A stretch of DNA of 64,000 bases, taken from positions 128,001 to 192,000 of the forward strand of contig CAWDKY010000027.1 in the NCBI GenBank assembly GCA_963802945.1, read 5' to 3'. Origin of the DNA: an uncultured delta proteobacterium (GTDB lineage: Bacteria; Desulfobacterota; RBG-13-43-22). Positions 4,912 through 63,655 of this stretch are shown here, piece after piece. The notes under the pieces are model-generated. The model had not been told where the DNA came from and did not search any database. It saw nothing but the letters and a program-made list of their open reading frames with translations. A program made the translations under genes and the position numbers. Each line of letters starts with the position of its first letter. Position 1 is the first letter of the stretch.

Positions 4912-5907
4912 ATGACAACAGAAGAATGGACCCCAGGAAAGCTATTGGAAATATCCGGAAATTACTGGGCGGCTTGTGCTGTCCAGGCCGGAGTCAAATT
5001 GGGTATTTTTTCGCACATCAGCAATCAGCCACTCAGCGGACAGGAAATTGCTCACCAACTGAATGGGGATCTGAGGGGCGTCACCATGCTTCTTAACGCT
5101 TTGACGGCCATGAATCTTTTAATGAATAAAGATGGGGTCTATTCTAACACGCCTTTCAGCTCCGCCTTTCTGTCAAAGGAATCCCACCAGTACATAGGCT
5201 ATATGATCATGCATCATCATCATTTAATGGCTTCCTGGTCTCAATTGGACAAAGCGGTATTAACCGGAAAGCCGATTCGAGGCCGGGCCTCTTTTGAGGA
5301 TGAAAAAGTCAGGGAAAGTTTTTTGATGGGCATGTTTAATATGGCCATGATGCTGGCCCCGCGCCTGGCCTTCATTATTGATCTTTCCGGTAAGAGACAT
5401 CTTCTTGACCTGGGCGGCGGCCCTGGAACTTACGCTATTCATTTTTGTCTGAAAAATCCCGGGCTCAAGGCCACAGTCTACGATCTGAAAACTACCCGGC
5501 CTTTCGCTGAAAAAACCATCGCCAGATTCGGCCTTACAGAGAGAATTGCATTCCAGGATGGGGATTATGTCAACAACGATATCCAGGGGACCTTTGATGC
5601 GGCCTGGCTTTCTCAAATCCTTCACGGCGAGGGCCCGGAGGAAGCTCAAAAGATCATCCAAAAAGCGGTCTCGGTCCTTGAGCCCGGGGGGCATATTCTG
5701 ATCCACGAATTCCTTTTGAACAATACCCTGGACGGCCCCCTGCATCCGGCCCTTTTTTCTCTGAATATGCTTCTGGGTACGAACCAGGGCCAATCTTATT
5801 CGGAACAGCAAGTCATGGATATGATGGCCAAGGCCGGGGCCGGAGAAATCCGCCGCCTGCCGATGCAAACCCCCAACGATTCAGGGGTGATCCAGGGGAC
5901 GGTTTAA
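4912..5907 (+). CDS. SAM-dependent O-methyltransferase with dimerisation domain (ASMT/CrtF-like)
   Basis: LDLGGGPGT SAM motif, N-terminal winged-helix dimerisation region, LFSLNML motif. Confidence 0.85.
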   Translation: MTTEEWTPGKLLEISGNYWAACAVQAGVKLGIFSHISNQPLSGQEIAHQLNGDLRGVTMLLNALTAMNLLMNKDGVYSNTPFSSAFLSKESHQYIGYMIMHHHHLMASWSQLDKAVLTGKPIRGRASFEDEKVRESFLMGMFNMAMMLAPRLAFIIDLSGKRHLLDLGGGPGTYAIHFCLKNPGLKATVYDLKTTRPFAEKTIARFGLTERIAFQDGDYVNNDIQGTFDAAWLSQILHGEGPEEAQKIIQKAVSVLEPGGHILIHEFLLNNTLDGPLHPALFSLNMLLGTNQGQSYSEQQVMDMMAKAGAGEIRRLPMQTPNDSGVIQGTV

Positions 5908-6076
5908 TAAGGTCTCGTTGTTTTCCTGATGTCTTAACGAGGGGTTCCCATCAATACTTCTGGGGAGGAAAAACAAACTTCCGGGTTTCAAAAAAAGTTT
6001 GATCGGTTATGGTGAGGAAGGCGGCAAAGAAATAACCTGTTGAAATCGATTAGATTCGCGATGGGGATGGTCTGTC

Positions 6077-6234
6077 TTAACAGGATGCGGAAAAACTCAT
6101 TTTTACAGGTTGCTCAAAAAGGTTCAGATACAAGACGCCCGAAATCCCGAGGAATGAGTCGTACATAGAAGTACGTCGCAATGACGAGGGATGAGGGCAA
6201 CGCAGTAGATGGGCCTTTTTCAGCAACTTGTTAA
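6077..6234. mobile_element. MITE-like non-coding element with terminal inverted repeats
   Basis: Left end TTAACAGGATGCGGAAAAA matches the reverse complement of the right end (TTAACAAGTTGCTGAAAAA) at 16/19. The core GCGTAC/TCGTAC-ATAGAA-GTACG is shared with 48650-48872. Confidence 0.65.
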
Positions 6235-6375
6235 GGTTTCCTCTTTCACCTCCTCTGGTCAGACTTGGCGATGCCGTGGGCTCCGTGAAAAAAATTAAGG
6301 GAGAGCCATAAACCGGATGGAGGGGCAGGGTTATGTCTCTTGTCGGCCAGGGGATGAAGAACCAATCGGTATGGT

Positions 6376-6819
6376 CTATAAGGCCTTTATTTCAGAGGTG
6401 CAACTGGGACACCGTGTGGCCTTGATCGGGATCACGGAAAAACAAAATGGGCATTCTTTGGTGGTCAGTGCGGCAGGTTCCGGTTCCTTTTTAAGTTTGT
6501 TGATCTGGCGGATCGTTAAGAAGATGACGAAGGCGACGATTAAAAAATCAATAATGGTATTGAAAAAAATACCATATTTGATCGTCGCCGCTCCGGCTTT
6601 TTTGGCCCCTTCCAAGGTGGCAAAAGATTGATTGGAAAGGGTTATAAAAAGATTATTGAAATCCACCTTACCCAAAAGTAGACCTATGGGTGGCATCAAG
6701 ACATCATTCACAAAAGAGGTGATAATCTTACCAAAGGCCGCTCCGATAATGATGCCCACGGCCATGTCCATTACATTTCCCCGCATAGCAAATTCTTTAA
6801 ATTCTTTCCACATATTCAA
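6376..6819 (-). CDS. mscL: Large-conductance mechanosensitive channel with C-terminal zinc-ribbon (CPFC...CPSC)
   Basis: [28 protein letters not shown] signature. Confidence 0.96.
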
Positions 6820-6938
6820 TCCTCCTTATAATAAGTTTAAAGATTAACTGCTCAAAACCTTAAAGGGACTGTTGGTTGAGTTATAAAACTCGGTGTAGGC
6901 TTTATTTTGTTTTTCCGGTAACATGATTCCTCCTTTTA

Positions 6939-7487
6939 TCAAATCAACCCAGGGATAAACATCTTGGTGGATTTTCGGTAGCGGGAATATTCGTCCCCGA
7001 ATCTGGCCATGTTCTCCTCTTCTTCCGCCTTAGCCGTAACTATCAGAAAGGCGGATACACCCAGGATCAATGACCCGCTCAACAAGGTCGTGTGTTTTAA
7101 AAAAATCCCCCAACCTAGCAATAACAATGAGGAGTAAAGGGGATGACGGATATATTTGTAGGCCCCGATGGTCACTAAATTAGCGGTATTTTCAAATCCC
7201 AAATCGGAAGAGCCTTGGACAGGGCCCTGGGGTTTTCCGATCTTTCGGAGGAGATAAAATCCATGGATGGCCAGAATAAGGGAAGCCGTCAACAAAGCCC
7301 ATGAAATCAGTTGAAAAACGGAATAAGGATGTTCGATCCAATAACTTATATTGATCAATAAAAGGATCAGTAGCAGCTCAAAGGCAAAAAAGCGGTAAAA
7401 CCCATGGGAGCGAGGCCTGGGTAATGATTGCCGGGAAATAAAAATAATTCCCAAAGAAACAACAGCAAAAATAATCCCTTTGACCAT
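6939..7487 (-). CDS. Isoprenylcysteine carboxyl methyltransferase (ICMT/PEMT) family membrane protein
   Basis: LVTIGAYKYIRHPLYS and EEE...FGDEY..Y motifs; multiple TM segments. Confidence 0.85.
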   Translation of the reverse strand: MVKGIIFAVVSLGIIFISRQSLPRPRSHGFYRFFAFELLLILLLINISYWIEHPYSVFQLISWALLTASLILAIHGFYLLRKIGKPQGPVQGSSDLGFENTANLVTIGAYKYIRHPLYSSLLLLGWGIFLKHTTLLSGSLILGVSAFLIVTAKAEEEENMARFGDEYSRYRKSTKMFIPGLI

Positions 7488-7634
7488 GGTCGGCCCTTCC
7501 TTAATCGGGTAATCAGTGCAGTGTATCTATCTTCCCTTACCATATCTCTTTTATCATAATTCCCGCCAAACCGGAACTCCAGATTGAAAAGACTGGATTC
7601 TGGATCAAGCCTGCCTTAGTGTCTTTTCTTCTTG

Positions 7635-7702
7635 GATTAACGCTGGCTCTCGCCTGTGAGAGCCGCGTAGTGGCCCGAATCCGGTGCAGAAGCAAGTTAG
7701 GC
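7635..7702 (-). repeat. attC site
   Basis: Minus strand GCCTAAC-ttgcttcTGCACcgg...GTTAATC; the stop codon of 7697-8182 lies inside R''. Confidence 0.75.
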
Positions 7703-8182
7703 CATAGGTCTTATCCAACCCAAGGGCAGTATGCACGGCACTTTCTTCTTATATTCACGATATCCGGAACCAAACACGGACTCCAAATAGTTTTCCTCTT
7801 TTTTGACCAATTGACGTAAGATGAGGTACATGAATATCGGTATGGTCAGCGCTATCCAACTGTTTACTAAAAGGGCTATTCCGGGGACAATAAAAACCAC
7901 CCATGATGCATATAACGGATGGCGACAACATCTGTAAATGCCGTTGGTTACAAGCTTATCAGCATTGTAGGCGCGCATAACTGTTTTAGCCGAAATTATA
8001 TAGAATGGTATTCCAATCACTATCAGCGCCATTCCAAGGATAATCAGAAACCGATGAGGTACGAAATCTATTTGGAAGACAGGATGGAAATAGCGGCTTA
8101 TTACGATAGTCACCATTCCGTAGCCGATCGATAGAGCCGCAAATATTGGACCTGAACCCCATCTGCTCATTTTTTCTTCCAT
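7697..8182 (-). CDS. ICMT/PEMT family membrane methyltransferase (gene cassette)
   Basis: LVTNGIYRCCRHPLYAS and EENYLESVFG..Y.EY motifs. Confidence 0.85.
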   Translation of the reverse strand: MEEKMSRWGSGPIFAALSIGYGMVTIVISRYFHPVFQIDFVPHRFLIILGMALIVIGIPFYIISAKTVMRAYNADKLVTNGIYRCCRHPLYASWVVFIVPGIALLVNSWIALTIPIFMYLILRQLVKKEENYLESVFGSGYREYKKKVPCILPLGWIRPMA

Positions 8183-8203
8183 ATCTATTATCCATTCAAA
8201 GTT

Positions 8204-8276
8204 ATTTAACTACCCAGTTGCACCTGACCGCAGGCTTGCGCGCTATCAGTATAATCAATATCAAAAGCCGTTATGG
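8204..8276 (-). repeat. Atypical or hybrid attC-like site
   Basis: CCATAAC (overlapping the stop of 8271-8876) ... GTTAAAT. The arms pair poorly, and the plus strand reads TAAC-tacccagt-TGCACCTGACC like an inverted half-site. Confidence 0.5.
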
Positions 8277-8876
8277 GACTTGCCTTTTCTGCATCAGGCA
8301 CCTCCAGGCCCGGGGTGGATTCGGGTGATGAGATCCGAAATGGCCGGAGGTAAGTGAAAGAACCTCAAAATAAGGCTCCACGGCCAAGACGATATCTCCG
8401 GCGGCCCGTTGAGGTGGACCAGGACCTTGGCGATGCTCATCAGCGTTGCCAACGAGGGTCAGCCACAGGCCGGCTTCTTCCAAATGAGCAGCGACATTTT
8501 TGGCAAAGCTTCTTCGATCATTTTCAGAACCGAAGGAGTGAAAACAGCCCCGGTCAAATACAAAACCAAAAGGAGCACCTTCAATTTTGTTCTTAAGAAA
8601 ATCAACCAGCCTGAAATCGCATTCGACCTTGGCTTCAGCAGCTTTTTCTTTGGCCTTCTCTATAGCAATCTCCGAAGTGTCGGTAGCAATAACCTGAAAG
8701 CGGTTCTGGGCAAGCCAGATGGAATTGTCTCCGGTTCCACAGCCGATATCTAAGACTTTGCAGCTCAGAATAGGTTTTTGGGTCACCACTTCGATAAGAT
8801 TGAAATCCGGCTGGCCAATGTCCCAAGGCGTGTTCCCTGATTGGTATCTTTCTTGGTAACGCTCTTCAACGGTCAT
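8271..8876 (-). CDS. Class I SAM-dependent methyltransferase, thiopurine/tellurite methyltransferase-like (gene cassette)
   Basis: TPWDIGQP, VLDIGCGTG and VFDRGCFH motifs. Confidence 0.85.
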   Translation of the reverse strand: MTVEERYQERYQSGNTPWDIGQPDFNLIEVVTQKPILSCKVLDIGCGTGDNSIWLAQNRFQVIATDTSEIAIEKAKEKAAEAKVECDFRLVDFLKNKIEGAPFGFVFDRGCFHSFGSENDRRSFAKNVAAHLEEAGLWLTLVGNADEHRQGPGPPQRAAGDIVLAVEPYFEVLSLTSGHFGSHHPNPPRAWRCLMQKRQVP

Positions 8877-8966
8877 CTAATCACTCCTCGTCATAAGTTA
8901 GCCATAAGAGTCAAGAGTAGACTCGACCCCATCCTCAAGAACACAAAAAGCTCGGGCAGCGGCCTT

Positions 8967-9374
8967 CTACTCGGAACCGGAGCCATAAACATCAAGATAG
9001 CGCGAAGTTGCTCCCCAGTTCATAAGCCTGGTATAGCCGGCCTGTTCGAGGTCCTTGATGACCATCTGTGCCCTTCCGCCGGTTTCACAGGTCAGTATGA
9101 GATACTGGGTTTTTGGTATCTCACCGAGCCTTTCCATGATCTGGCTCGACGGAAAGCTCTTGGCAGTCGGGATGTGCGACTTTTGATAGGCATCTTCGGG
9201 ACGGACATCGATGATCCAAATGTCTTCCCGCGGTTTTTCTATAAGCTCCTTTAGCTTGGCCGGTTCAAGGTACTTTTTTAATATTCCCCCATCACTACCC
9301 ACATACCCCTCGTAACAACCCGCGAGCAAGGCCACAGAAATCAAAACAATGAACCAGGCGACATGTTTTTTCAT
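8967..9374 (-). CDS. Rhodanese-domain lipoprotein
   Basis: Likely start MKKHV at 9374, lipobox LLAGC, IIDVR...Y...HIPTA, active-site loop CETGGRA. Confidence 0.8.
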   Translation of the reverse strand: MKKHVAWFIVLISVALLAGCYEGYVGSDGGILKKYLEPAKLKELIEKPREDIWIIDVRPEDAYQKSHIPTAKSFPSSQIMERLGEIPKTQYLILTCETGGRAQMVIKDLEQAGYTRLMNWGATSRYLDVYGSGSE

Positions 9375-9643
9375 ATGGTATAATCCCCCCGATAAATGTC
9401 TTTGCGATGGCCGACCTTTACTACCCAAACCGTAAGGTCCTTGTCTTGAATGGAGTATACAATTCGATATCGTCCTTGACGGAGGCGATACCTTTCCTGG
9501 CCGGTCAGCTTTTCACAATCTGATGGCCGGGGATCTTCGGCCAGAGTTCTGATCCGCCGGAGTATCTTCTTCAAATCGCTCTTGGCTATGGCCGCAAAAT
9601 CCTTCTCAACAGATTCTCGGAAAAAGATTTTATATGCGGCCAT
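9371..9643 (-). CDS. RelE/ParE family type II toxin
   Basis: DPRP..CEKL.GQERYRLRQGRYRIVY...VVKVGHRKDIYR. Confidence 0.9.
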   Translation of the reverse strand: MAAYKIFFRESVEKDFAAIAKSDLKKILRRIRTLAEDPRPSDCEKLTGQERYRLRQGRYRIVYSIQDKDLTVWVVKVGHRKDIYRGDYTI

Positions 9644-9866
9644 CTTTTTTCAGTCTTTTTACCATCTCATCATAACGGATCAAAGGCTCTCCCGCCCTCC
9701 CTTCAAGCGCTGCAAAATCCTCGGCGTCTTCCACCAAGGCTTCTCTGACGGCCTTATTGATAAGCTCCGATACGGAGGTTGAGGTCTCAACGGCCTTTAG
9801 TCGCAGGGCTTTATGAAGCTCGGGTTTTAAATAGACCGTAGCTCTCTTGACTTGTGTCGACATCAT
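9630..9866 (-). CDS. CopG/ribbon-helix-helix antitoxin
   Basis: RATVYL..ELHKALRLKA...SVSELIN RHH pattern; overlaps the relE start. Confidence 0.85.
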   Translation of the reverse strand: MMSTQVKRATVYLKPELHKALRLKAVETSTSVSELINKAVREALVEDAEDFAALEGRAGEPLIRYDEMVKRLKKDGRI

Positions 9867-9890
9867 GGCACCTCCAGATGTAGTTAAATA

Positions 9891-9919
9891 ACCATAACAC
9901 TATAACGCTATTATGTCAA
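9891..9919 (-). promoter_or_regulatory. Sigma70 promoter of the TA cassette
   Basis: TTGACA-17 nt-TATGGT upstream of a GGAGG RBS. Confidence 0.7.
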
Positions 9920-9941
9920 TGACGTTACATTAAGTCTTTAA

Positions 9942-10087
9942 AACCAACGACGAAATTCAGGGCGAGGCGGGAGAATCCCACCGATCCTGTGCAATGCAAT
10001 GTTAGGCCGCATATGGGTACTTAGGCTAAGTTAACTTCCATTGGTCTCAAACAAAATTCAAATATCAGGGCTGACCCTGATATTTCT
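9942..10087 (-). repeat. ORF-less module copy 1: GGGTCAGCCCT hairpin + ~55 bp spacer + attC (attC 9942-10007)
   Basis: Near-identical to 11930-12075 and 12550-12695; perfect 11-bp stem AAATATCAGGG/CCCTGATATTT at 10060-10085. Confidence 0.9.
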
Positions 10088-10155
10088 CCACTTCTCCCTC
10101 GATTCATGACATGGTACCAGGCATCCGGATATTCTATTCTCAACGGTCTGGACAT
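10081..10155 (-). pseudogene. 5' remnant of a REP-associated tyrosine (HUH/Y1) transposase (RAYT-like)
   Basis: Translates MSRPLRIEYPDAWYHVMNRGRSGE, the typical RAYT N-terminus, then runs into module copy 1. It is preceded by the motif GGGGGCAAGTCTGCTTTTGAC (10186-10209). Confidence 0.8.
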
Positions 10156-10310
10156 ATTTCAATTCTTATCATAACGTACCAACAAGAGTCAAAAGCAGAC
10201 TTGCCCCCCTCCGACCAATTTGTAATAAATTACAAGACCATGCACACTTACATAAAGCCGCGACGAAAGTCCGGTCGGTGTTTACTGACTTCTTATACCT
10301 GTAGATCATT

Positions 10311-10643
10311 TCATAGTCTTTCAATTAGCTTGTAATAATCCTTGATTGTACGAAGGGATTCCATCATGGTTTGGAACAAGATCCAACTGAGGACAAGGAT
10401 TCCTATGGTTAGTCCAATCTTCCATGCCCGCGTCGTTTGTGGACGCCACCAAATCAGGGGCAACGCCAGAGGTCCCACAGCGCAGACTGCGAAGATAATG
10501 AAGGATTTTCGGAAATACCATGGAGTCTTTTCTTCTGCAAGACGTGAGGGGATGGAGGCATCCAGAAACTCACCACAGTGTTTACATTTTATAGCTTCGT
10601 CTTGAATATCTTCAGCGCAGAAGGGACACTTTTTCATTATCAT
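10311..10643 (-). CDS. Zinc-ribbon membrane protein (gene cassette)
   Basis: [22 protein letters not shown] followed by two TM helices; the true start lies downstream of the attC. Confidence 0.75.
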
Positions 10644-10651
10644 CTCTCTTG

Positions 10652-10715
10652 GTAGAACGTTGCAGGTCACCGGGAGCCCGATTTTTGGGTGATTCGATGG
10701 AGCCAATTGTTAGCG
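10652..10715 (-). repeat. attC site
   Basis: CGCTAAC...cgggctcccggtgacctgcaac-GTTCTAC, immediately after the stop of 10717-11250. Confidence 0.75.
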
Positions 10716-10716
10716 C

Positions 10717-11250
10717 TCACTCGTTCGCTTTGGTTGACCCCGTCTCCCTGATCCAAGGCTTTAGCCTTGGAATCCACATCGGTACATTCCGTCTATAAAC
10801 GAGGTATTCTTCACCAAAACGTCTTACCAATCCTGGCTCTTCTGATAACCGAAAATAGAAGGTATTCCCTATACCAAAGATCAGGGCCCACATGAATAAT
10901 AACCATGATCCAAAAAAAATAGTTTCCCCGATGAGCATAAAAAGAACCCCAGAAATCATAGGATTGCGGACATAGCGGTAGACACCGTCGGTAACGAGCT
11001 TTTGAGTTGGATTCCATGGAGCGAGCGTTCCTCTACCCTTTTTCATGAATAATCGAATCGTGATGACAAGAAGCAAAAGTCCGACGCAAAAGGCAAGGGT
11101 ACCCAGGGGAGCTTGAATAAAGGGAACAGGAAGATAGAGTCTTACCCCGAAAGGATGGAAACGGACGACCTGTAGAAATGGAACGATCACTACAACTGTG
11201 ATCGGCAGAATCAGAGAACAAAGTTGTCGAAGAAGGTTTGTGCCAGCCAT
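10717..11250 (-). CDS. ICMT/PEMT family membrane methyltransferase (gene cassette)
   Basis: GTLAPWNPTQKLVTDGVYRYVRNPM and EEPGL.RRFGEEY..Y motifs. Confidence 0.85.
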   Translation of the reverse strand: MAGTNLLRQLCSLILPITVVVIVPFLQVVRFHPFGVRLYLPVPFIQAPLGTLAFCVGLLLLVITIRLFMKKGRGTLAPWNPTQKLVTDGVYRYVRNPMISGVLFMLIGETIFFGSWLLFMWALIFGIGNTFYFRLSEEPGLVRRFGEEYLVYRRNVPMWIPRLKPWIRETGSTKANE

Positions 11251-11308
11251 AGTAGATCTTCATAGCATAAGAGATTTGTTGCGCCAGGGTTCAACCTCCA
11301 CCTTCGAC

Positions 11309-11386
11309 ATATAACAACCAAACTCAACTGCGGCCCTGGCGAGGCAAAGCGGCGACTGGGCCGTCGGTTGGAGCGCCTTGTTCGGT
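11309..11386 (-). repeat. attC site
   Basis: ACCGAAC-aaggcgctccaaccgacggccc...gggccgcagttgag-GTTATAT. Confidence 0.8.
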
Positions 11387-11533
11387 GCTTATCCCCTGAG
11401 ATAGATATTCAACCTTACCGTTTGTCCAAATTGGTATTTTTAAATTATTCTTCCTTGCATTTTCAGCAACCTTGACGGCGGCACGTTGCAAAGCCTTAAA
11501 TCCTAAGACTGTGTATGGATTATGTACTTTCAT
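11324..11533 (-). CDS. Small protein, probable antitoxin partner of a zeta-toxin-like P-loop kinase
   Basis: KALQRAA..VAE.ARK....IPIW.NGKV; lies directly downstream of a deleted Walker A ORF and reads into the attC. Confidence 0.55.
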   Translation of the reverse strand: MKVHNPYTVLGFKALQRAAVKVAENARKNNLKIPIWTNGKVEYLSQGISTEQGAPTDGPVAALPRQGRS

Positions 11534-11551
11534 TTTCCTGTCTCCGATTCA

Positions 11552-11623
11552 TCAAGAACCACTTGCAAATGTCGTTTTGCCCGAACCATTAGGCCCTGCT
11601 ATTATGTAACATTTTTTTTCCAA
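11552..11623 (-). pseudogene. Internally deleted zeta-toxin-like P-loop ATPase
   Basis: GAGGT RBS and TTG start, then MEKKCYIIAGPNGSGKTTFASGS-stop (Walker A region only). Confidence 0.75.
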
Positions 11624-11643
11624 AGTTAAAATACCTCTCTATC

Positions 11644-11709
11644 ACCAAACGGTGGAACTCACGGCGAGGCGGGAGCATCCCGCCGATCCCGTACAGTGAA
11701 ATGTTAGGC
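11644..11709 (-). repeat. attC site (same family as the module attCs)
   Basis: GCCTAAC-atttcactgtacgggatcggcgggatgctcccgcc...GTTTGGT; the stop of 11704-11913 lies in R''. Confidence 0.85.
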
Positions 11710-11913
11710 AAGTTTTTTTTGTCGTCTGATGATTTCCGCCAATGATCTTAAGGCTTGATTCACTGAGTCATGGTCAGGGAAAACTTTCGCAACGTCCGGC
11801 TCAATGACCACGGTATTTGTTCCCTCTTCGTACATCTTTGAGTATTTTCCCCGAATACCCTTGCTGAAATCGTATTCCTCAAGCATGTCCGGATCTTTTT
11901 GCATTCTCTTCAT
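11704..11913 (-). CDS. BrnA-like antitoxin (orphan, gene cassette)
   Basis: MLEEYDFSKGIRGKY...VVIEPDVAKVFPD..SVNQALRSL. Confidence 0.75.
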   Translation of the reverse strand: MKRMQKDPDMLEEYDFSKGIRGKYSKMYEEGTNTVVIEPDVAKVFPDHDSVNQALRSLAEIIRRQKKLA

Positions 11914-11929
11914 ATTGTTTCCTTATCGT

Positions 11930-12075
11930 GCATAACGACGGAATTCACGGGGAGGCGGGAGAATCCCGCCGATCCCGTGCAGTACAATGTTAGGCAGTAT
12001 ATAAATAATTAGGCTAAGTTAACTTCCATTGGTCTCAACCAAAATTCAGATGTCAAGGGCTGACCCTGATTTCTC
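11930..12075 (-). repeat. ORF-less module copy 2: hairpin motif + spacer + attC (attC 11930-11995)
   Basis: GAGAAATCAGGGTCAGCCCTTGACA...GCCTAAC...GTTATGC. Confidence 0.9.
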
Positions 12076-12102
12076 CGCTTATCCAGCGTGATGTTATATT
12101 TT

Positions 12103-12330
12103 CTACATTAATTCAAGGAAAAGATCGACATCCATCCGAGCTTGCTTTAGAATATGGGAAAGTGTCGAACGTTTGATTGGTCTGTGGGCCGGAATTGTCA
12201 GTTTTAGCACTTCATCGTGGATATGCTTTTGCATTCTGATGTGGCTGCCCTTTTGCCGGACTATCACCCATCCGTCCCGCCGAAGTGCTCGAATTACTTT
12301 GTCATATGCAACGCTTGGGATTTTCGTCAT
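12103..12330 (-). CDS. hicA: HicA family toxin
   Basis: GWVIVRQKGSHIRM...IPAH..IKRSTL..IL. Confidence 0.9.
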   Translation of the reverse strand: MTKIPSVAYDKVIRALRRDGWVIVRQKGSHIRMQKHIHDEVLKLTIPAHRPIKRSTLSHILKQARMDVDLFLELM

Positions 12331-12530
12331 ACTGCGACTTCTAAGATCTCTGTACCCGGGACTATGTTCATGTCGTCAACGACAGGCTCAATGTATAGCT
12401 CAATTGCTTCCTTGATGTTTTCCAAGGCTTCCTCTTTTGTATCTCCCTCGCTAATACAACCAGGAAGGCTTGGAACATAGGCAGTAAACCCACCTTCTTC
12501 GCTTGGCTCAAAGATAATTTTAAGTTTCAT
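12327..12530 (-). CDS. hicB: HicB family antitoxin
   Basis: EEGGFTAYVPSLPGCISEGDTKEEALENIKEAI. Confidence 0.9.
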   Translation of the reverse strand: MKLKIIFEPSEEGGFTAYVPSLPGCISEGDTKEEALENIKEAIELYIEPVVDDMNIVPGTEILEVAV

Positions 12531-12549
12531 TTTTCAATCCTCCATTAAA

Positions 12550-12695
12550 ATATAACGATAGAACTTACGGGGAGGCGGGAGAATCCCGCCGATCCCGTGC
12601 AGTGAAATGTCAGGCCGCATATGGGTACTTAGGCTAATTTAACTTCCCTTGGTCTCAATCATAATTCAAATGTCAAGGGCTGACCCTGATTTCTC
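12550..12695 (-). repeat. ORF-less module copy 3: hairpin motif + spacer + attC (attC 12550-12615)
   Basis: GAGAAATCAGGGTCAGCCCTTGACA...GCCTGAC...GTTATAT. Confidence 0.9.
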
Positions 12696-12725
12696 TCGTG
12701 ACTGATCTGTTTTTCTGGCCCTCTG

Positions 12726-13250
12726 CTACTTGAGAGACTTTAGCCACTTCTTCCGTTCTTTCTCGTCGGGCACTGCGAACTCTTCCAACTTCTGACGCAC
12801 TCTTCCCACTCTTACAGGGTCATACGACTCCAACACAAGCTTCGGCGTCAAGTGCTCCATCTCGAGCACGAGTTTGATGTTGGTCCGAAGATGCTCGACA
12901 GTATTACGTGTTTCATCTCTGGCCCGCTCTGCCTCGACCTTTGCGAGTTTGGCTTCTGCATTGGCCTTCAGTACGCCTTCTCTTGCCGCGGCAGCTTGCC
13001 TCAGAGCATCGCCTGCTGACTGAACAGCCCGGTCCGCTGAATTCCTTTGCCTGGTGGCTTCGTGGAATTGCAGCCAGGATAAGGTAACGAGAGCTATTGA
13101 CAGGATCATGGAGACGACGCTAATGAAACCGGCAACAGACTCCAACTTTGATGAAAAGTAACCTTGAGTTCTCTTACAGTGAAAGCAGACTCTTGCGCCT
13201 TCCGGAATGGACATCCGACAGTGTCGGCAGGGCTTGGTTTTATCGGTCAT
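12726..13250 (-). CDS. Hypothetical protein: zinc ribbon + TM helix + coiled coil (gene cassette)
   Basis: CRHC...CFHC, a hydrophobic segment and an Ala/Glu-rich heptad region. Confidence 0.65.
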   Translation of the reverse strand: MTDKTKPCRHCRMSIPEGARVCFHCKRTQGYFSSKLESVAGFISVVSMILSIALVTLSWLQFHEATRQRNSADRAVQSAGDALRQAAAAREGVLKANAEAKLAKVEAERARDETRNTVEHLRTNIKLVLEMEHLTPKLVLESYDPVRVGRVRQKLEEFAVPDEKERKKWLKSLK

Positions 13251-13278
13251 GCTTCAATCCTTCAGAAACTGTTTCTTT

Positions 13279-13370
13279 AGCGAACGCAATGTATCGGCCG
13301 CACGGGACAACCAGCATGAATGAAAAACAAAGCGGGCTAATATCGTGTCGGCTGGATGTTTTTGTTAGAT
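13279..13370 (-). repeat. attC site
   Basis: ATCTAAC...GTTCGCT; R'' is exactly complementary to this cassette's start, GTTAGAT. Confidence 0.8.
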
Positions 13371-14101
13371 TGCAGGAATGGCTTTAGATTGAGTTTAATA
13401 TTTTCTGCTAATGCATCTATATAGTCATTGCTCATTCTGCCCGGATGGTACGCTTCATAAAAAATCTGTGCCCTGTATTTGTATTTAATTATTCCAGTAT
13501 CAGAAATTTCTTGTCCCCCAGAAAATTTATTTGCCAAAAGCCCATATGTTTTTGTAAAAAATACGTTGATCGGGGCCTTTACGACATCGATTTTTTTGAA
13601 TATATAGTCCATCTTTGTACATTTTTCCCGCAAATTCCATTGATGTTTGGGGTCGTAACATTTGCACGCATTGCTTAACGCCACATAATCCAATAGTTCA
13701 AACCACCAAAGGTCATCTTTCTGGATAGATAGCCGCATGATTTTATATATCCTATTCCAAAAACCCGGCATATATGCCGTTTGGAAAAAACAAAACCAGA
13801 GGGGTTGCGCTATTGTTTTATCTACGCTGAAACGATGCTCATAAGCCCATTCGTAACTTTCTAAACCTACAAAAAAAATCAAAGGGGTTTTACCCACCCA
13901 ATATATCCCCTGCGGCCCATCTATTTCATCGCCAAATTCGGCCATACAGTCTGCCACACACCCAGGCATATTATTTTTGTAAAATGCCCAAATAGCTTCA
14001 TACTTAGTCTGAACAGCCGATACACGTTCCAAAAAATTGCCGCTCATGTCATTTTCAATCTTTTTTAACTTTTCTAAATACTTCGCGATTTCTTCATCCA
14101 T
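13337..14101 (-). CDS. Hypothetical protein, possible uracil-DNA glycosylase superfamily fold (gene cassette)
   Basis: IFFVGLE, FW, ALSNACKC and YHPG motifs in UDG-like order; low GC. Confidence 0.5.
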   Translation of the reverse strand: MDEEIAKYLEKLKKIENDMSGNFLERVSAVQTKYEAIWAFYKNNMPGCVADCMAEFGDEIDGPQGIYWVGKTPLIFFVGLESYEWAYEHRFSVDKTIAQPLWFCFFQTAYMPGFWNRIYKIMRLSIQKDDLWWFELLDYVALSNACKCYDPKHQWNLREKCTKMDYIFKKIDVVKAPINVFFTKTYGLLANKFSGGQEISDTGIIKYKYRAQIFYEAYHPGRMSNDYIDALAENIKLNLKPFLQSNKNIQPTRY

Positions 14102-14113
14102 AATATTATCTCA

Positions 14114-14212
14114 ATCTAACGCAAATTTCACCGGCCGGCGCCGCCAAAGCCAACCGAGCGAAGGCGAGAAGACATACTTCTTACGCCGGTCCGGTGCAAA
14201 TTGTTGTTCGCG
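14114..14212 (-). repeat. attC site
   Basis: CGCGAAC-aacaatttgcaccggaccggcg...cgccggccggtgaaatttgc-GTTAGAT; long paired arms. Confidence 0.85.
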
Positions 14213-14738
14213 GAAACTCGCTGTCTGACGGCTGAGTGCGAAAATATTTTTCAAACGCCAAATACCACTCAAGGTCGGAACCTCGGAGATCTCCTTTCCT
14301 CTGGCCCGCGAGGATCATGAACAGCGAGACAAACCCGTCCCAGTATCGCGGCTCCCCATACTTGCCCCTTACGGGTTTGGCAGGATTGCTCCGGAGATAT
14401 TCCTTTGGGCTCCGATTGCTTTTGGTCATGTTGCACTTATTGCAGGAGGTCACGAAATTTCTCTCGTCGTGCGCGCCACCCGACGAGTGCGGCTCGACGT
14501 GATCTATCACGGCTGCGAGGTGATCCAGCATCGGTGCTGCGTCACGGCGATAACGGAAATCGTAGTACGCCAGCTGACGCGGGTATTTTTGTTCTCGCGC
14601 AAATCCTTCGAGATATTTCAGTGCGGGAGCGAATACCGTTGGCCGTTGGCACCAGTGGCAGAGCCAGCCGTCTCTAAATAGCACACGGACCTGAACGGCA
14701 ATTGGGATCTTTGCTCTGCCTCGACCACGCTTGTCCAT
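14181..14738 (-). CDS. HNH endonuclease (first cassette of array 1)
   Basis: VLFRDGWLCHWC...IDHVEPHSSGG....NFVTSCNKCNMTKS. Confidence 0.85.
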   Translation of the reverse strand: MDKRGRGRAKIPIAVQVRVLFRDGWLCHWCQRPTVFAPALKYLEGFAREQKYPRQLAYYDFRYRRDAAPMLDHLAAVIDHVEPHSSGGAHDERNFVTSCNKCNMTKSNRSPKEYLRSNPAKPVRGKYGEPRYWDGFVSLFMILAGQRKGDLRGSDLEWYLAFEKYFRTQPSDSEFPRTTICTGPA

Positions 14739-14755
14739 GTTTCAGTTCCTCTTAC

Positions 14756-14790
14756 CGCGAACAATTAATATACGAAGTTCATTTTTTACA
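14756..14790 (-). other. Putative attI-like recombination site
   Basis: AT-rich non-palindromic sequence ending ...TATATTAATTG|TTCGCG. TTCGCG is complementary to the R'' (CGCGAAC) of the HNH cassette, and there is no upstream attC arm. Confidence 0.6.
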
Positions 14791-15084
14791 ATTTTTCTCG
14801 ATATTATAACACCCCATCATATTTAAAAAAAGGTAAAATTTACATAATAATCAATAGATACATATTGATTTGATGAAGCGGAGGACTTCTGGACCAAATG
14901 GTTGTTCAATCCGACGGCAAATCCGGGGTAACCAAATGGAATAGGGGACAAAAACAAAAAAATATTGACTTTGTCCCCCCTCCCATGTTAGACAAATGCG
15001 GTCAATATTATAACCCGAGGATTATTAAAAAAATAAACGGGTTGGGAAGCCCGCCGTAACATTTTTGTGTCGGGTTGAGGCTTC

Positions 15085-15309
15085 GTGCAGGAAGATACCA
15101 GAAAATACATTAAGTTGCTGGCCTTAGTCAGTACCATGGGAATATCCATGGGCCTGGCTCTAGTAATTGCCATTGTCGTGGGTTATTATCTGGATAAATG
15201 GTTTAAAACCAGCCCGGTTTTCTTTCTAATATTTATGGTCTTGGGGATAGTAGCCGGATTTAGAAATATCTACGTGATTATGAAAAGGACTGAAAAAGAT
15301 TTTAAATGA
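15085..15309 (+). CDS. atpZ: AtpZ/AtpI family F0 accessory protein
   Basis: GYYLDKWFKTSPVFFLIFMVLGIVAGFRN; first gene of the F0 operon. Confidence 0.85.
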   Translation: MQEDTRKYIKLLALVSTMGISMGLALVIAIVVGYYLDKWFKTSPVFFLIFMVLGIVAGFRNIYVIMKRTEKDFK

Positions 15310-15734
15310 ACAGGGGGTTGTCTATTTGGAAAGAAGGATCGGTCGAAGATCCTTTTCTTAACAAAGTCCGGTTTATGAACGGGGTGATTTTTGCCCTGTT
15401 ACTGCTGGGCAGTATGATTCTGATGCCCCCCTTTTTTGCTCTTGGTGTCAGTATTGGTGGTTTGATCATTCTGGTCAATTTTCATCTCCTGTCCCGGATT
15501 TTAAGAAAAGCCTTTATCCCCGATCACCTGGCCAGCCCCAAGTCGGTTATTGTTAAATACTATCTACGGTTGTTGGGCACCGGCATCGTGTTGTATTTTT
15601 TAATTGCCAAAAGGCTGGTCGATCCCCTGGGCTTGGTGGTCGGATTGTCGGTGGTCGTCATCAGCCTGACCCTTCTGGGGTTTAATGAAATGCGAAAAAT
15701 CCTTTTTAAACCGTCATGCCCCCCAGGGGCGTGA
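15306..15734 (+). CDS. atpI: ATP synthase subunit I
   Basis: Four TM helices, located between atpZ and atpB. Confidence 0.8.
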   Translation: MNRGLSIWKEGSVEDPFLNKVRFMNGVIFALLLLGSMILMPPFFALGVSIGGLIILVNFHLLSRILRKAFIPDHLASPKSVIVKYYLRLLGTGIVLYFLIAKRLVDPLGLVVGLSVVVISLTLLGFNEMRKILFKPSCPPGA

Positions 15735-31968: not shown

Positions 31969-33648
31969 TTAATGCTGTTTGTTCCTCTTCTCCTCGTACA
32001 TCAACGTGTCTGCCTGAGCCATAAGTTCATCGAGAGAAAAGGGTTTTTTAGGGTCATAAGGTGCTATACCTATGCTCAGGGAGAGTGTATAGCTTCTTCC
32101 TTCAAGTCTGTTGTAATCATCAAGATAATTATGTAGACGCTTCATGAGGACTTCTCTGGTTTCATCGGTGGTATCTATTACGAGGATGGCAAATTCATCA
32201 CCCCCCACACGGCCTATGATATCTGATTCCCTGAATACCTCTTTGAGGATAGTTGCAATCTCAACAAGTGCCTTGTCACCCTCCTGGTGACCCAATGTAT
32301 CATTAATCTGCTTCATCTTATCCAGATCAGCAAAGAAGAGGAGCATGTCTTTCTTGGTCCTCTCTGTTACCTTCATCTGCTGCTGGGCAAGGGTGAAGAA
32401 CCCTCGTCTGTTGTTTAAACCCGTAAGGTCATCCATTATTGACATGGTCTGGAGTTTTTCTTCCAGTCGCTTGCGCTTAGTGATGTCCCTGGAAAGACCT
32501 CGGAATCCGACTGGCTTGCCTTCTTTATTTCTTATTAGAGATACCGAAATTTCGTTAAATCCGTTAGTCCCGTCTTTCTTGATAAATTCCCCCTCAAACG
32601 CCCTAATCTGTTCCCCTGTTCTGAATACCCTATTGAAGAGCTCATACATTTTTTTAGCGGCTGTTTCATCGGTATATCGCTTGTAGTTCATCCCGATCAA
32701 TTCTTCCCGGGTATATCCAAGATCGCTACACTCGGCGTCGTTAACAAAGGTAAAATTTCCGGTAAGGTCAACCTCAAAATAACCCTCTTGGGTGTTATCA
32801 AGAATGGTCCGGTATTTCTCCTCACTCTGGATCAGCGCCTCTTCCGCCCGCTTGCGCTCGGTGATGTCAAACATGGTAGACCTGATCATCAAGTAGTGCC
32901 CGGGTGAGTCATAGATGACTGAGGCATTCAATAACACCGGGAACGTTGTACCGTCTTTGCGAATTATTTCTAGTTCTAATTCCCCTACAAATCCTTCGGT
33001 TTTAAGGCGTGAAAAATTTTCCCGGAAGGTTGGCAGGTTCTCTGAGGCGATCAAGTCGGAAAACTTTTTTTTCCCAATCAGCTCGTTCCGGGTATATCCC
33101 AACCATCTAAGTTCAGTATGGTTGATTCGTTGGAATATGCCGTTTTCGTCTAATGAGTGATAGCCACAAGGGGCGTTGTTATATAGATCTTCAATCTCTT
33201 CCGCCGATTTACGCAGTTGGGCCGTTCTTTCCGCCACCTGGATTTCAAGCTTGGTCCGCAACCGACTCAGTTCGAGATGGGTCCTCACTCGCGCCAGGAG
33301 TTCTTCGCGCTGGTAGGGCTTGGAAATAAAATCAACTGCCCCAAGCCCGAATCCTTTCACATTTACATCGAGGTCTGTAAGACCGCTAATAATCATTACA
33401 GGGATATCGCGGCTATCTTCCTGCGCTTTAAGCCGTCGGCAGACTTCGAATCCATCTATGCCCGGCAAGCCGATATCCAGAAAAATCAGCCCGGGCGGCT
33501 CGGACGCCACGGAGCGAAGCGCCAGTTCTCCGCTACCGGCTGAGCGCACCTGGAAGCCCCCAGTCGACAAGATATTCGTAAGCAGCCTCACCGCCAGCGG
33601 ATCGTCGTCGACAATAAGTATTTCATCTTGCTCGGTCATAAACCACAC
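31969..33648 (-). CDS. REC-PAS-PAS diguanylate cyclase
   Basis: Receiver domain, PAS/PAC repeats, intact GGDEF and an RESD I-site. Confidence 0.93.
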   Translation of the reverse strand: MWFMTEQDEILIVDDDPLAVRLLTNILSTGGFQVRSAGSGELALRSVASEPPGLIFLDIGLPGIDGFEVCRRLKAQEDSRDIPVMIISGLTDLDVNVKGFGLGAVDFISKPYQREELLARVRTHLELSRLRTKLEIQVAERTAQLRKSAEEIEDLYNNAPCGYHSLDENGIFQRINHTELRWLGYTRNELIGKKKFSDLIASENLPTFRENFSRLKTEGFVGELELEIIRKDGTTFPVLLNASVIYDSPGHYLMIRSTMFDITERKRAEEALIQSEEKYRTILDNTQEGYFEVDLTGNFTFVNDAECSDLGYTREELIGMNYKRYTDETAAKKMYELFNRVFRTGEQIRAFEGEFIKKDGTNGFNEISVSLIRNKEGKPVGFRGLSRDITKRKRLEEKLQTMSIMDDLTGLNNRRGFFTLAQQQMKVTERTKKDMLLFFADLDKMKQINDTLGHQEGDKALVEIATILKEVFRESDIIGRVGGDEFAILVIDTTDETREVLMKRLHNYLDDYNRLEGRSYTLSLSIGIAPYDPKKPFSLDELMAQADTLMYEEKRNKQH

Positions 33649-33688
33649 CCATATCCCAGTTTTGATAATGAAAATCTTTTTACGTTCT
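32836..33688. repeat. 853-bp direct repeat copy 1 (REC + first PAS and upstream region)
   Basis: Nearly identical to 41563-42415 (offset 8727 bp). Confidence 0.95.
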
Positions 33689-33988
33689 ATGCAGTTTTAA
33701 TATCAGACAACCAATAAAAGACCTCACCTCTCTCTTGAGGAACGGGGTCTATTTTTTACATTTTGCTGATTTCCACTTGAACTCTTCTTATTTTTTCAAA
33801 ATCTAATTTTGAAGATTTCAAGGAAGAAATGTTTCAAAATTGAAGGACAAATGCACCCGCCACTCTGATTTTGAAGACTCCACCTACAAGTCCTCAAAAA
33901 ACATAGCCCTATAAATGCACGATTACTGTTTGAAAGCAAGCGATTTAAAGCAAAGAAAATTTATAAATCAGACCTATCATTTTCCGGT

Positions 33989-37516: not shown

Positions 37517-38257
37517 TGCTCCTTTTTTTCAGAAAAAAGGTTATGAAATAGTAGATCAATATACACTCCTTATGTGATTGGTTAATCCTAATGGCTCGAC
37601 TTTAGCGCATGATTCCTCCCGGATTACTCCGGTTGATCCCCTTAGATGCCCATTAAGATCGAGAGCCCCTTTGCCCTTTCAGGTTGTTATCTAGAAAAGT
37701 GTGACCGATTTCGCCAAAAAGGAAGGCTCAATAAAAAAACCTCCAAAGGAAATAGATATCCCTTATGGAGGTTTCGTATCGGTACTTTTTGAGAATCCCA
37801 CTTTATTTCCCGCTCCAAAAAGGTTGGGGTTAAGTTGGAATTTTTTCAATAAATTATAGTAATAATAGAATTATTGCTCCGTTGAGAGAAAAAGTCAATA
37901 GAACAGTGGTGAAATGATGTGACTGCATAGGTTTATAATATGCCTTATTAAGGATTTTCGTTTGAACTCTTGTCTTTTTTCAAAAGAGTAAATTTGAAAG
38001 TTACAAGGAAGAACTCCTCAAGTTTCCCCGACCATGGCCTCCACACTCCAAATTCAAATCTTTCACCTACAAGTCCTTAAAAAACATAGCCCTAAAAATT
38101 AACGATTACGGATAGAAATATGGGAGAGATGATTGGACAACCCTGTCCTTGAACTTGAGGTGTTATCGCTCCTTTTTGGCCATAGTCATCTCCTTCCTTT
38201 GGGCTGACTCAGAGGTTATCATATTGTCCAATTTTTAGGGACCACCTCAATCTGAAC

Positions 38258-39811: not shown

Positions 39812-39822
39812 CGTTTTCCGGT

Positions 39823-48649: not shown

Positions 48650-48872
48650 GATGACTTTGTAAAAACCTCTCCCGCCAAAGGGGGGACTAGGCGCGTAAAC
48701 CGGGACCCACCCTGAAAGGGCGGGACAGAGCGTTTCCATTTTCGCGAAAAAATCCTGAAGGATGAGGCGTACATAGAAGTACGCCACAATAAGCCAGCCC
48801 CGGCGAAGGCCAGGGTAGGTTGCAGTGCAATCCCGCGAAACGCTTGACTGATGGTCTTTTTACGAAGCCATC
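48650..48872. mobile_element. MITE-like non-coding element
   Basis: TIRs GATGACTTTGTAAAAA / TTTTTACGAAGCCATC (14/16); core GAGGCGTACATAGAAGTACGCC shared with 6077-6234. Confidence 0.65.
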
Positions 48873-63595: not shown

Positions 63596-63655
63596 ATCCA
63601 ACGAGGCGGTGCACCGGATCGCCGAAAAAACCGGCTCCCGGTGACCTCGTTGCCG
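63596..63655 (+). repeat. attC site (shortened right arm)
   Basis: ATCCAAC-gaggcggTGCACcggatcgccg...cggctcccggtgacc-GTTGCCG. Confidence 0.7.

Follow-up and report, generated by a model that had tools for sequence, protein, structure and literature searches.

The window analysed here is a 64,000-nt stretch of the 4.37-Mb draft genome G000 of an uncultured delta proteobacterium (assembly GCA_963802945.1, contig CAWDKY010000027.1, positions 128,001 to 192,000). It carries an attC cassette array with co-oriented ORFs, toxin-antitoxin cassettes among them. The chromosomal flanks are 92–94% identical on both sides to contig C18 of G005, a congeneric genome assembled independently; the cassette content differs. 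Seven sites in the array matched the attC covariance model built here (9942-10007, 10652-10715, 11644-11709, 11930-11995, 12550-12615, 13279-13370, and 14114-14212), all of which were also among the sequences that trained it. With these seven matches lying within 9942-14212 and intI absent nearby, the array is a CALIN. No integron integrase scored over the cut-off in G000 (best TIGR02249 score 79.6 bits vs. 265), a 72-contig draft in which intI could still be hidden, or in G005; G021 does encode one (442.5 bits). RAYT-type ends are crowded in the array, with five in 8.8 kb vs. about 15 in the rest of the genome. An Rfam search of 5500-15500 returned nothing beyond two chance-level matches. The features discussed below are as follows:

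5956-14757, minus strand: attC cassette array (CALIN) with conserved chromosomal flanks; ORFs and attC sites read on this strand
8906-8930, minus strand: solo end of a second RAYT-like family, resembling the flanks of the RAYT-like gene on contig C32
9942-10093, minus strand: module copy 1 (leader 10093→10078, core 10077→10055, spacer 10054→10008, attC 10007→9942)
10094-10213, minus strand: truncated RAYT-like element (inverted-repeat end 10209→10183, 5' leader, ORF start 10155→10094)
10211-10287, minus strand: partial attC of the zinc-ribbon cassette, read from the sequence (first box and both inner arms)
11644-11709, minus strand: module-less attC of the same type, the control copy (model 56.6 bits)
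11930-12080, minus strand: module copy 2 (leader 12080→12067, core 12066→12043, spacer 12042→11996, attC 11995→11930)
12081-12099, minus strand: left half of the HicBA cassette's own attC (first box, short arm, then module)
12550-12697, minus strand: module copy 3 (leader about 12697→12687, core 12686→12663, spacer 12662→12616, attC 12615→12550)

The module is about 150 nt long, contains no ORF, and forms the 3' ends of three cassettes, all on the minus strand. It consists, in order, of a purine-rich leader (10–16 nt), a core of 23–24 nt, a spacer, and a 66-nt attC. An initial reading of the DNA made from its letters alone (the sequence-only reading) had described three near-identical modules, which a repeat search recovered as one 144-nt family (9944-10087, 11932-12075, and 12552-12695; 78–88% identity to the reference copy), along with a 63-nt family that adds a fourth, module-less copy at 11648-11710. 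The same three copies and the fourth attC were the only matches when each module was compared by blastn with the whole 4.37-Mb assembly, and pairwise identities of 88–91% over 119–137 nt (E values 1e-31 to 1e-35) are far beyond chance. The spacer measured 46–47 nt rather than the ~55 bp first given. A perfect −35 hexamer lies within the core, as does a small palindrome. The hairpin ascribed to every copy is strong in copy 1, where a 1-nt deletion leaves a 23-nt core and creates an 11-bp perfect stem (DNA fold −10.2 kcal/mol, z −5.4), but weak in copies 2 and 3 (z −1.8 and −0.65, respectively).

Each module does, as proposed, contain a full attC: outer inverted boxes (AAC end, GTT start), inner arms, and an imperfect hairpin of the size usual for attC (about 55–140 nt) are visible, the site lies 3' of co-oriented ORFs, and similarity between copies stops at the GTT crossover. 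The model, with 14 pairs, gave the four same-type attCs 54.9–59.7 bits (54.9, 59.7, and 54.9 for copies 1, 2, and 3), and RNAalifold found compensatory changes in five of the six predicted consensus stem pairs. The first box of the control attC overlaps the stop codon of a 69-aa ORF (11913→11704). Intact cassettes have complementary start and end boxes (GTTAGAT/ATCTAAC, GTTCGCG/CGCGAAC) whereas the module-closed ones are mismatched (GTTCGCT vs. GCCTGAC; GTTATAT vs. GCCTAAC), just as the sequence-only reading had noted. The first box of the half-site at 12081-12099 is exactly complementary to the HicBA cassette start box at 12550-12555, and the match to a HicBA homologue in G053 begins at the cassette's first base and extends to that same first box. 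The attC of the zinc-ribbon cassette is only partial: the truncated RAYT-like element cuts it, contigs of relatives diverge at 10214, the GTT box is missing, and the site did not match the attC model.

Two metagenome contigs, L037 and L048, revealed the identity of the core, carrying the identical 24 nt as inverted terminal repeats around a RAYT ORF (L037: direct copy at 260, inverted at 1297, ORF of 322 aa; L048: 231, 1261, and 319 aa). Both proteins contain Y1_Tnp and Bac_DnaA_C domains and exceed the cut-off of 80 bits for NF047646 (REP-associated tyrosine transposase) with 89.6 and 86.0 bits, respectively, and in both the stop codon falls within the right repeat. The −35 hexamer of the core lies 56–60 nt before the RAYT start in these complete elements, with acceptable −10 hexamers 17–18 nt further on. 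Because the same 24 nt flank these two ORFs, the "hairpin" of the module is read as the end of a RAYT element, and we are highly confident that the module joins a RAYT-element terminal repeat to an integron attC. The earlier assignment of the hairpin to a RAYT thus gains a matching element, but no RAYT with this core end was found in G000 or G005; the RAYT-like proteins of G000 are 33–43% identical to the cognate proteins of the two contigs. Eight copies of the core occur in G000, and contig C14 carries two inverted doublets. The RAYT-like genes of G000 on C16, C33, and C32 have related inverted flanks. A search for a second inverted end beside the attC found none, with alignment scores averaging 5.8 vs. 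5.5 for control attCs.

The RAYT remnant adjacent to copy 1 belongs to a different end family. Its ORF, truncated to 20 codons plus 2 nt, aligns together with its 5' flank to an intact gene (G000:C32:110202-111179) at 86% DNA identity over 106 nt, with 87.5% amino-acid identity over 24 residues; the intact gene encodes 326 aa with Y1_Tnp and Bac_DnaA_C domains. The left limit of the remnant was placed near 10213, since contigs of runs X3 and X5 continue differently there. The end of this second family is present in 10 copies in G000, including the solo end just upstream of a methyltransferase ORF (8876→8271).

The two sides of the module behave differently. On the right, every copy is bounded exactly by the attC's GTT, where IntI crosses over. 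On the left, the common sequence extends 16, 14, and 10–11 nt upstream of the core (copies 1, 2, and 3, respectively), and unrelated DNA lies upstream of each, as had been reported. Copy 1 follows the first 20 codons of the RAYT-like ORF (10155→10094), a junction fixed at 10093/10094 by contigs of runs X2 and X3 in which that ORF continues, and copy 2 follows 19 nt (12099→12081) of the HicBA attC. Both identifications agree with the sequence-only reading, but the ORF before copy 3 is not the zinc-ribbon gene named there; it encodes 174 aa with no Pfam match, and its stop lies ~28 nt before the module. The zinc-ribbon gene instead precedes copy 1, and the ParE cassette that follows copy 1 has a promoter-like site of its own (9919-9891). 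In G005b the left junction falls inside a methyltransferase ORF, which then reads into the core. Neither the RAYT ORF, the attC, nor the methyltransferase ORF, cut by copies 1, 2, and G005b, respectively, resumes past the module.

A constant GAGAA boundary had been claimed, and comparison with the whole genome and relatives was proposed as its check. The variable upstream DNA was borne out; in place of a constant GAGAA we found a zone 8–16 nt from the core (spread about 8 nt) across the copies, G005, and the contigs compared, and the intact cognate RAYT expected elsewhere was missing from G000 and G005. No GTT-type crossover box was found at the left junctions. None of them shows the CT dinucleotide that E. 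coli TnpA-REP uses as its cleavage site (in the accessible portion of PMC8266576), and no constant target tetranucleotide was seen, the bases outside five junctions being different. With junctions spread over ~8 nt and no CT, precise HUH chemistry is not evident. Independent junctions are few (close family, five; L041/L050 family, three), and the same four-base purine motif was read by eye in the leader at only 9 of 28 core sites.

These 28 distinct core sites were collected with an exact 20–24-nt pattern, so the sample is biased towards this core variant. At 16 of them an attC hairpin follows 45–62 nt downstream (29 nt in one case), always in the same orientation (16/16), with the outer end of the repeat facing away from the attC. 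The others comprise the two complete RAYT elements, eight sites without attC, one with a first box only, and one cut by a contig end. Outside the window, attC calls came from a folding heuristic made here and from sequences that also trained the model. The arrangement recurs in other Desulfobacterota with several unrelated spacer and attC types, and G005 has two modules at the syntenic locus in other positions. L031/L044 and L047 share an upstream gene and core, but the spacer-attC unit that follows is not the same in both, a sign of exchange within the core. The distal spacer never occurs apart from the core in G000 or G005.

The composite is real and unreported: its parts are individually known, but are not known to occur together. 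No coupling of a RAYT repeat to attC was found in the literature searched, and attC appears only as an analogy in the accessible portion of PMC8266576. For the origin of the junctions, we give a probability of roughly one half to the following account. The module would be an old, non-autonomous RAYT derivative, a solo left end since coupled to an attC, the two being inherited as one unit. Its right side would have been reshuffled by integrase crossovers, and its left side joined to new DNA by a process other than IntI, centred on the element end. That joining may have been (a) the work of a RAYT supplied in trans, through cleavage and strand transfer, or (b) illegitimate recombination via the small hairpin of the end and purine-rich microhomology. 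Cassettes would thereby have lost their own attC or ORF tail and been closed by the attC of the module. Since G000 has neither a cognate RAYT nor IntI, the present copies are probably fossils.

An alternative that we consider unlikely is that the module was kept for transcription, its core serving either as a promoter that reads across the attC into the following cassette or as a terminator or stabiliser for the upstream cassette; decay deletions would be tolerated only up to the module edge, hence the clustered left junctions. The perfect −35 hexamer, the acceptable −10 hexamers of the complete elements, good −10 hexamers read by eye in some attC-linked families (G021 and L039), and the constant orientation of the core towards the attC are consistent with such a role, and a terminator scan did list the hairpins of copies 1 and 3. 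Terminator-like sites are nevertheless at chance level (4 vs. 4.4 expected), a promoter scan of 9300-13400 gave seven sites vs. 5.9 expected, all of them outside the module cores, position 2 of the −10 candidates is not A in any of the three copies, and the ParE cassette already has a promoter-like site. A separate deletion ending ≤16 nt from the core would, moreover, be needed for every copy (five of five).

Distinctly unlikely, in our view, is the excision and insertion by the RAYT of the whole unit from end hairpin to attC, with the attC as the other end, which would graft a recombination site onto arbitrary DNA and make cassettes without IntI; the DNA downstream of the new attC would later be removed by IntI as a cassette. 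The genuine RAYT end, the attC on its inner side at 16 of 16 sites, junctions that cut an ORF and an attC, module-closed cassettes with non-matching boxes, and near-identical attCs in two genomes without IntI all fit. Against it, there is no second RAYT-type end at or near the attC and no sign that RAYTs recognise attC hairpins, the similarity ends on the right exactly at the IntI crossover, and the left limit shifts over 8 nt. Cores also occur free of attC and swapped between attC types, the cognate RAYT is absent from G000 and G005, and RAYT activity as described in the accessible portion of PMC8266576 is in vitro cleavage and strand transfer, not transposition. The absent second end, the IntI crossover on the right, and the attC-free cores likewise count against the proposal in the sequence-only reading that a RAYT grafts the attC independently of IntI; that interpretation is, overall, partly supported. 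That the module is a mobile attC donor, whose left end a RAYT-type enzyme joins to arbitrary DNA so that ordinary genes acquire a functional attC, usable by an integrase as a cassette boundary, has to our minds only a small probability.

We regard as improbable the preferential insertion, on the 5' side of attC hairpins already in place, of a REP-like element of 60–90 nt that comprises the leader, the core, and some of the spacer but not the attC. The core-attC distance varies little from one attC type to another, the array is dense in RAYT-type ends, and IS1111-attC elements and group IIC-attC introns also target attC sites, yet copies 1, 2, and G005b are not simple insertions, since the interrupted features never resume, and the distal spacer is tied to the core in G000 and G005. 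Duplication by IntI of the 3' end of one common cassette would account for right boundaries at IntI crossovers and for the alike attCs expected within one array, but is rejected as very improbable because similarity stops 10–16 nt before the core rather than at a cassette start, the left limits have no GTT-type box, the boxes do not match, and the three upstream parts are unrelated, two of them truncated features. Despite a metagenome-assembled draft of 72 contigs with 6.7% contamination, the chance of an assembly artefact, a possible refutation named in the sequence-only reading, is negligible: the copies differ by 9–22%, G005 independently carries the same composite at the syntenic locus, and contigs of run X1, possibly from the source sample itself, match 9897-10077 and 12667-12817 (copy 1 and the left junction of copy 3) without difference.

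The pairing may bear on an open question of integron biology, how cassettes come by their attC sites. In it, a second single-strand-DNA system is coupled, a RAYT-type HUH element, repeatedly and physically to attC, with junctions not made by the integrase and a core-attC geometry fixed across several lineages. If the attC-donor reading were true, cassettes could arise without reverse transcription, and homogeneous attCs in IntI-less genomes would be explained. Even as fossils, the modules offer a concrete substrate pair (leader plus core, and attC) for a RAYT of the L037/L048 type and an IntI of the G021 type. Should they be only retained promoters or decayed insertions, the accumulation of RAYT-type ends in Desulfobacterota attC arrays would still be a useful annotation.

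Among known systems, the module end resembles REP/RAYT in its cognate Y1 HUH protein over the NCBIfam cut-off, flanked by short inverted palindromic repeats (the gene lies between them in L037 and L048), and in the solo copies and inverted doublets scattered in the genome. It differs in copy number (eight cores and 10 second-family ends in G000, rather than tens to hundreds of extragenic copies), in having several RAYT-like genes in one genome, with a separate end family for each, and in a protein with an extra DnaA-C-like helix-turn-helix domain and an ORF that ends inside the right repeat. The conserved GTAG (or CGTC) tag 5' of the REP palindrome, described in the accessible portion of PMC8266576, has no counterpart 5' of the core palindrome, where GTAG is absent and the bases are purine-rich. 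IS200/IS605 elements share the enzyme class, and their ends are recognised as folded single strands and cleaved some distance 5' of the hairpin (same portion of PMC8266576). Their hairpins are subterminal and their ends are not inverted repeats, unlike those here, and membership was rejected on this ground, on NF033573 scores of 16.1 and 19.7 bits (cut-off 55), and on the lack of a fixed tetra- or pentanucleotide target motif.

Sedentary arrays and CALINs share with this locus the inverted boxes, inner arms, imperfect hairpins of 60–100 nt, near-identical attCs, co-oriented ORFs, toxin-antitoxin cassettes, and the absence of an integrase nearby. Ordinary CALINs differ in that here three attCs carry a fixed 85-nt 5' extension derived from a transposase element and modules with non-matching boxes close the cassettes. 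The IS1111-attC group and group IIC-attC introns, like the module, place mobile DNA specifically at attC sites. They insert inside attC and encode either a DEDD transposase or a reverse transcriptase, whereas here the attC is intact, no such gene is present, and the RAYT end lies 46 nt outside the attC; membership was rejected for the intact attC, the ORF-less module, and the absence of an Rfam match. An attC-targeting element has been proposed as a route of cassette formation (accessible portions of PMC3001079 and PMC7923331), and group IIC-attC introns were the only mechanistic proposal for attC acquisition found in the literature search, as far as the accessible text of its sources goes. 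A last comparison is with ISCR/IS91. These Y2 enzymes act in one-ended rolling-circle capture next to class 1 integrons; the elements include their transposase gene and capture whole resistance regions, not attC. What they have in common with the module is a constant HUH end next to which the captured DNA varies, again in the context of integrons.

The window corresponds to positions 128001–192000 of contig C27 in the source assembly G000. The three modules lie in a series of minus-strand ORFs running from ~14738 down to ~6376, with attC-like sites between them. ORFs with Pfam matches encode an HNH protein, a HicB and HicA pair, a PEMT-type methyltransferase, a zinc-ribbon protein, an RHH antitoxin with a ParE toxin, a rhodanese, a SAM methyltransferase, and ICMT-like proteins. 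Seven array sites scored 29–60 bits on a covariance model trained on 18 attCs, taken from the window and from related loci; as all seven were in the model's training set, these scores measure consistency and not discovery. RNAalifold predicted six stem pairs from the attC alignment, five of them with compensatory changes. No integron integrase was found in the source assembly G000 (best genome-wide model match 79.6 bits vs. a cut-off of 265) or in the same-genus genome G005, and the modules thus belong to a cassette array that lacks an integrase; the genome G021, from another family, gave an integrase match of 442.5 bits. The array flanks are conserved in G005 at 92–94% identity (an ATP-synthase/UvrA side and an O-methyltransferase side), and at this syntenic locus G005 has a different cassette order and two modules of its own, G005a and G005b. 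An order-level search, the order comprising 21 genomes only, recovered the module in G000 and G005 only, and homologues of the 174-aa cassette were absent from 61 relatives, G000 itself apart. At least 16 attC-model matches with E below 1e-5 occur in G000, three of which carry the module; 150 of 1192 candidates were scored genome-wide, so attC counts for this genome are lower bounds.

A further attC-model match lies at the window end (63596–63655, plus strand, 44.1 bits) and two or three more lie just beyond it (G000:C27:192457–193364); together they form another small attC cluster, on the opposite strand. Elsewhere in the window, a ~158-nt repeat with a very strong fold (−58.8 kcal/mol) at 6077–6234 has 94–97% identical copies on two G005 contigs, and 41 nt of it are found again at 48750–48790. 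Several families of repeated coding segments at 32734–41824 (59–300 nt, 64–95% identity, one strand) resemble domain repeats of large paralogs.

A repeat search recovered the modules as a 144-nt family of three copies (9944–10087, 11932–12075, and 12552–12695; 78–88% identity to the reference copy), to which a 63-nt family added a fourth, shorter copy at 11648–11710. Across the 4.37-Mb, 72-contig assembly, the modules match only one another (88–91% over 119–137 nt, E 1e-31 to 1e-35) and the fourth attC. Minus-strand alignment resolved each copy into four parts whose identity is well supported, namely a purine-rich leader, a 23–24-nt core, a 46–47-nt spacer, and a 66-nt attC.

Module copies, placed by alignment
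Copy 1, minus strand: leader 10093→10078, core 10077→10055, attC 10007→9942
Copy 2, minus strand: leader 12080→12067, core 12066→12043, attC 11995→11930
Copy 3, minus strand: leader ~12697→12687, core 12686→12663, attC 12615→12550

A hairpin had been read in every copy from the sequence; the long perfect stem is present in copy 1 only, by way of a 1-nt deletion (−10.2 kcal/mol, z −5.4), and is not found in copies 2 and 3 (z −1.8 and −0.65). An Rfam search of 5500–15500 returned two chance-level matches only (E 0.12 and 0.54).

Exact-pattern scans of species genomes and metagenome contigs recovered the core in four species-genome stretches (G005 and G021) and 21 metagenome contigs. Two of these metagenome contigs, L037 and L048, have identical copies of the 24 nt in inverted orientation, ~1,040 nt apart, on either side of a single ORF (322 and 319 aa, respectively), the stop codon falling inside the right-hand repeat. 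Both proteins carry Y1_Tnp and Bac_DnaA_C domains and match NF047646 (REP-associated tyrosine transposase) with 89.6 and 86.0 bits against a cut-off of 80. The identical inverted sequence around these RAYT ORFs identifies the core as the repeat that ends a RAYT-type element on both sides. Ten Y1_Tnp matches occur in G000; the inverted flanks of its long RAYT-like genes are related to the core and specific to each family, sharing its small palindrome and varying in the loop, none of its RAYT-like genes carries this core, and the proteins are only 33–43% identical to those of L037 and L048. The core itself occurs eight times in G000, in the three modules, in two inverted doublets on contig C14, and as a near-copy on C25. 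The C14 doublets (G000:C14:141480–141560 and 143800–143871), with arms 42–47 nt apart and each lying past the end of paralogous genes, look like miniature RAYT-element derivatives that kept both ends.

With four duplicate rows left out (L031, L044, L038, and L042), there were 28 distinct core sites, a sample biased by the exact pattern used, and attC assignments outside the window relied on a folding heuristic and visual inspection. An attC hairpin follows the core at 16 of the 28 sites; two are complete RAYT elements, eight have no attC, one has the first box only, and one is cut by a contig end. At the 16 linked sites the first box begins 45–62 nt past the core (29 nt in one), and the outer end of the repeat faces away from the attC in all 16. 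These sites represent about six spacer/attC types and hence not 16 independent events; within this biased sample, coupling of the core to attC is general. Loci L031/L044 and L047 have in common the methyltransferase gene upstream and ~46 nt counted from the core start; beyond this their spacers and attC types differ, a sign of exchange within the core. At L029/L070 (G005:C94), L032, and L046, a conserved ~130-nt segment ending at a ribosome-binding site and short ORF start follows the core instead of an attC, and two of these sites have an attC left half 30–55 nt upstream of the core. A general location of RAYT-like genes inside attC arrays was rejected because the attC model gave one match, L013, among six RAYT-like loci of G000 (~1.5 kb either side).

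On the right, similarity between copies ends at the attC GTT, the IntI crossover; on the left, the modules have no GTT-type crossover box.

Left starts of the shared sequence
Copy 1: 16 nt before the core, inside a RAYT ORF
Copy 2: 14 nt before the core, inside another attC
G005a: about 12–14 nt before the core, directly after a stop codon
Copy 3: 10–11 nt before the core, ~28 nt past an ORF stop
G005b: at most 8 nt before the core, inside a methyltransferase ORF

The RAYT ORF runs on past 10094 in contigs from public sequencing runs X2 and X3 (the public runs listed as carrying the sequence included no RNA run, and the DNA runs, with small shares of 0.17 or less, were compared as contigs), placing the copy 1 junction at 10093/10094. 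A G000 homologue (8876→8271) places the G005b junction inside the methyltransferase ORF, which then reads into the core. The L041/L050 family follows the same pattern, with starts 18, 18, and about 10 nt before the core. The constant GAGAA boundary proposed in the sequence-only reading did not hold, as the left starts vary 8–16 nt before the core and have no common flanking motif; the left junctions cluster tightly along the element end's outer edge and do not fall at one bond.

That reading's account of the upstream DNA was largely borne out. The quoted start and end boxes were correct, being complementary in the HNH and 254-aa cassettes and not complementary in those closed by copies 3 and 2. 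Copy 2 is indeed fused to half of the HicBA attC, the 19 nt (12099→12081) opening on a box that complements the HicBA start box exactly. A HicBA homologue in the related genome G053 matches the cassette from its first base to that attC box, with no attC found there; this pair (L060 1477–1942) lies between two direct ~100-nt copies of the neighboring gene's 3' end. Copy 1 is preceded, as claimed, by a RAYT-like ORF start and 5' flank, which align over 106 nt at 86% identity with an intact C32 gene encoding Y1_Tnp and a DnaA-C-like helix-turn-helix domain; the remnant belongs to the C32 end family and not to that of the core. This truncated RAYT-like element lies inside the zinc-ribbon cassette's attC, past the second inner arm (10183–10287, minus strand); this attC has no GTT box, and contigs of other runs diverge from 10214. 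A solo inverted-repeat end of the C32 family (8906–8930, minus strand) stands 1–2 nt before a box resembling a first attC box and 30 nt before a methyltransferase ORF; no attC hairpin was found between that ORF and the rhodanese ORF upstream.

We consider it about an even chance (roughly 0.5) that the copies derive from an old unit in which a solo RAYT end was coupled to an attC. Integrase would have reshuffled the right side of this unit, and on the left an event centered on the element end would have attached new DNA; that event may have been the work of a trans-acting RAYT or an illegitimate recombination aided by the small hairpin and by microhomology of purine-rich sequence. The main rival, a transcriptional role of the module, draws on the perfect −35 hexamer in the core and on the core being the promoter region in complete RAYT elements, but a sigma-70 promoter scan returned no site in any of the three module cores, and we regard it as unlikely. 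More doubtful still is the sequence-only model that has a RAYT carry the hairpin and the attC along as one unit, building cassettes independently of IntI: local alignment for an inverted second end near the attC gave means of 5.8 in module flanks vs. 5.5 in attCs without a core, with shuffles in the same range, and the model has neither a cognate enzyme in these genomes nor a precedent. A cassette duplicated by IntI would share sequence up to the cassette start, and after a plain insertion the interrupted RAYT ORF, attC, or methyltransferase ORF would resume past the module; both fail here.

Full-text searches of literature outside subscription journals found no publication that connects attC to either RAYT or REP sequences. 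In PMC8266576, a GTAG tag directs cleavage to a CT close to the repeat, and attC figures only as another folded single-strand substrate; unlike the system described there, the module ends have neither the CT cleavage site nor the GTAG tag. Group IIC-attC introns are a proposed route to cassette formation.
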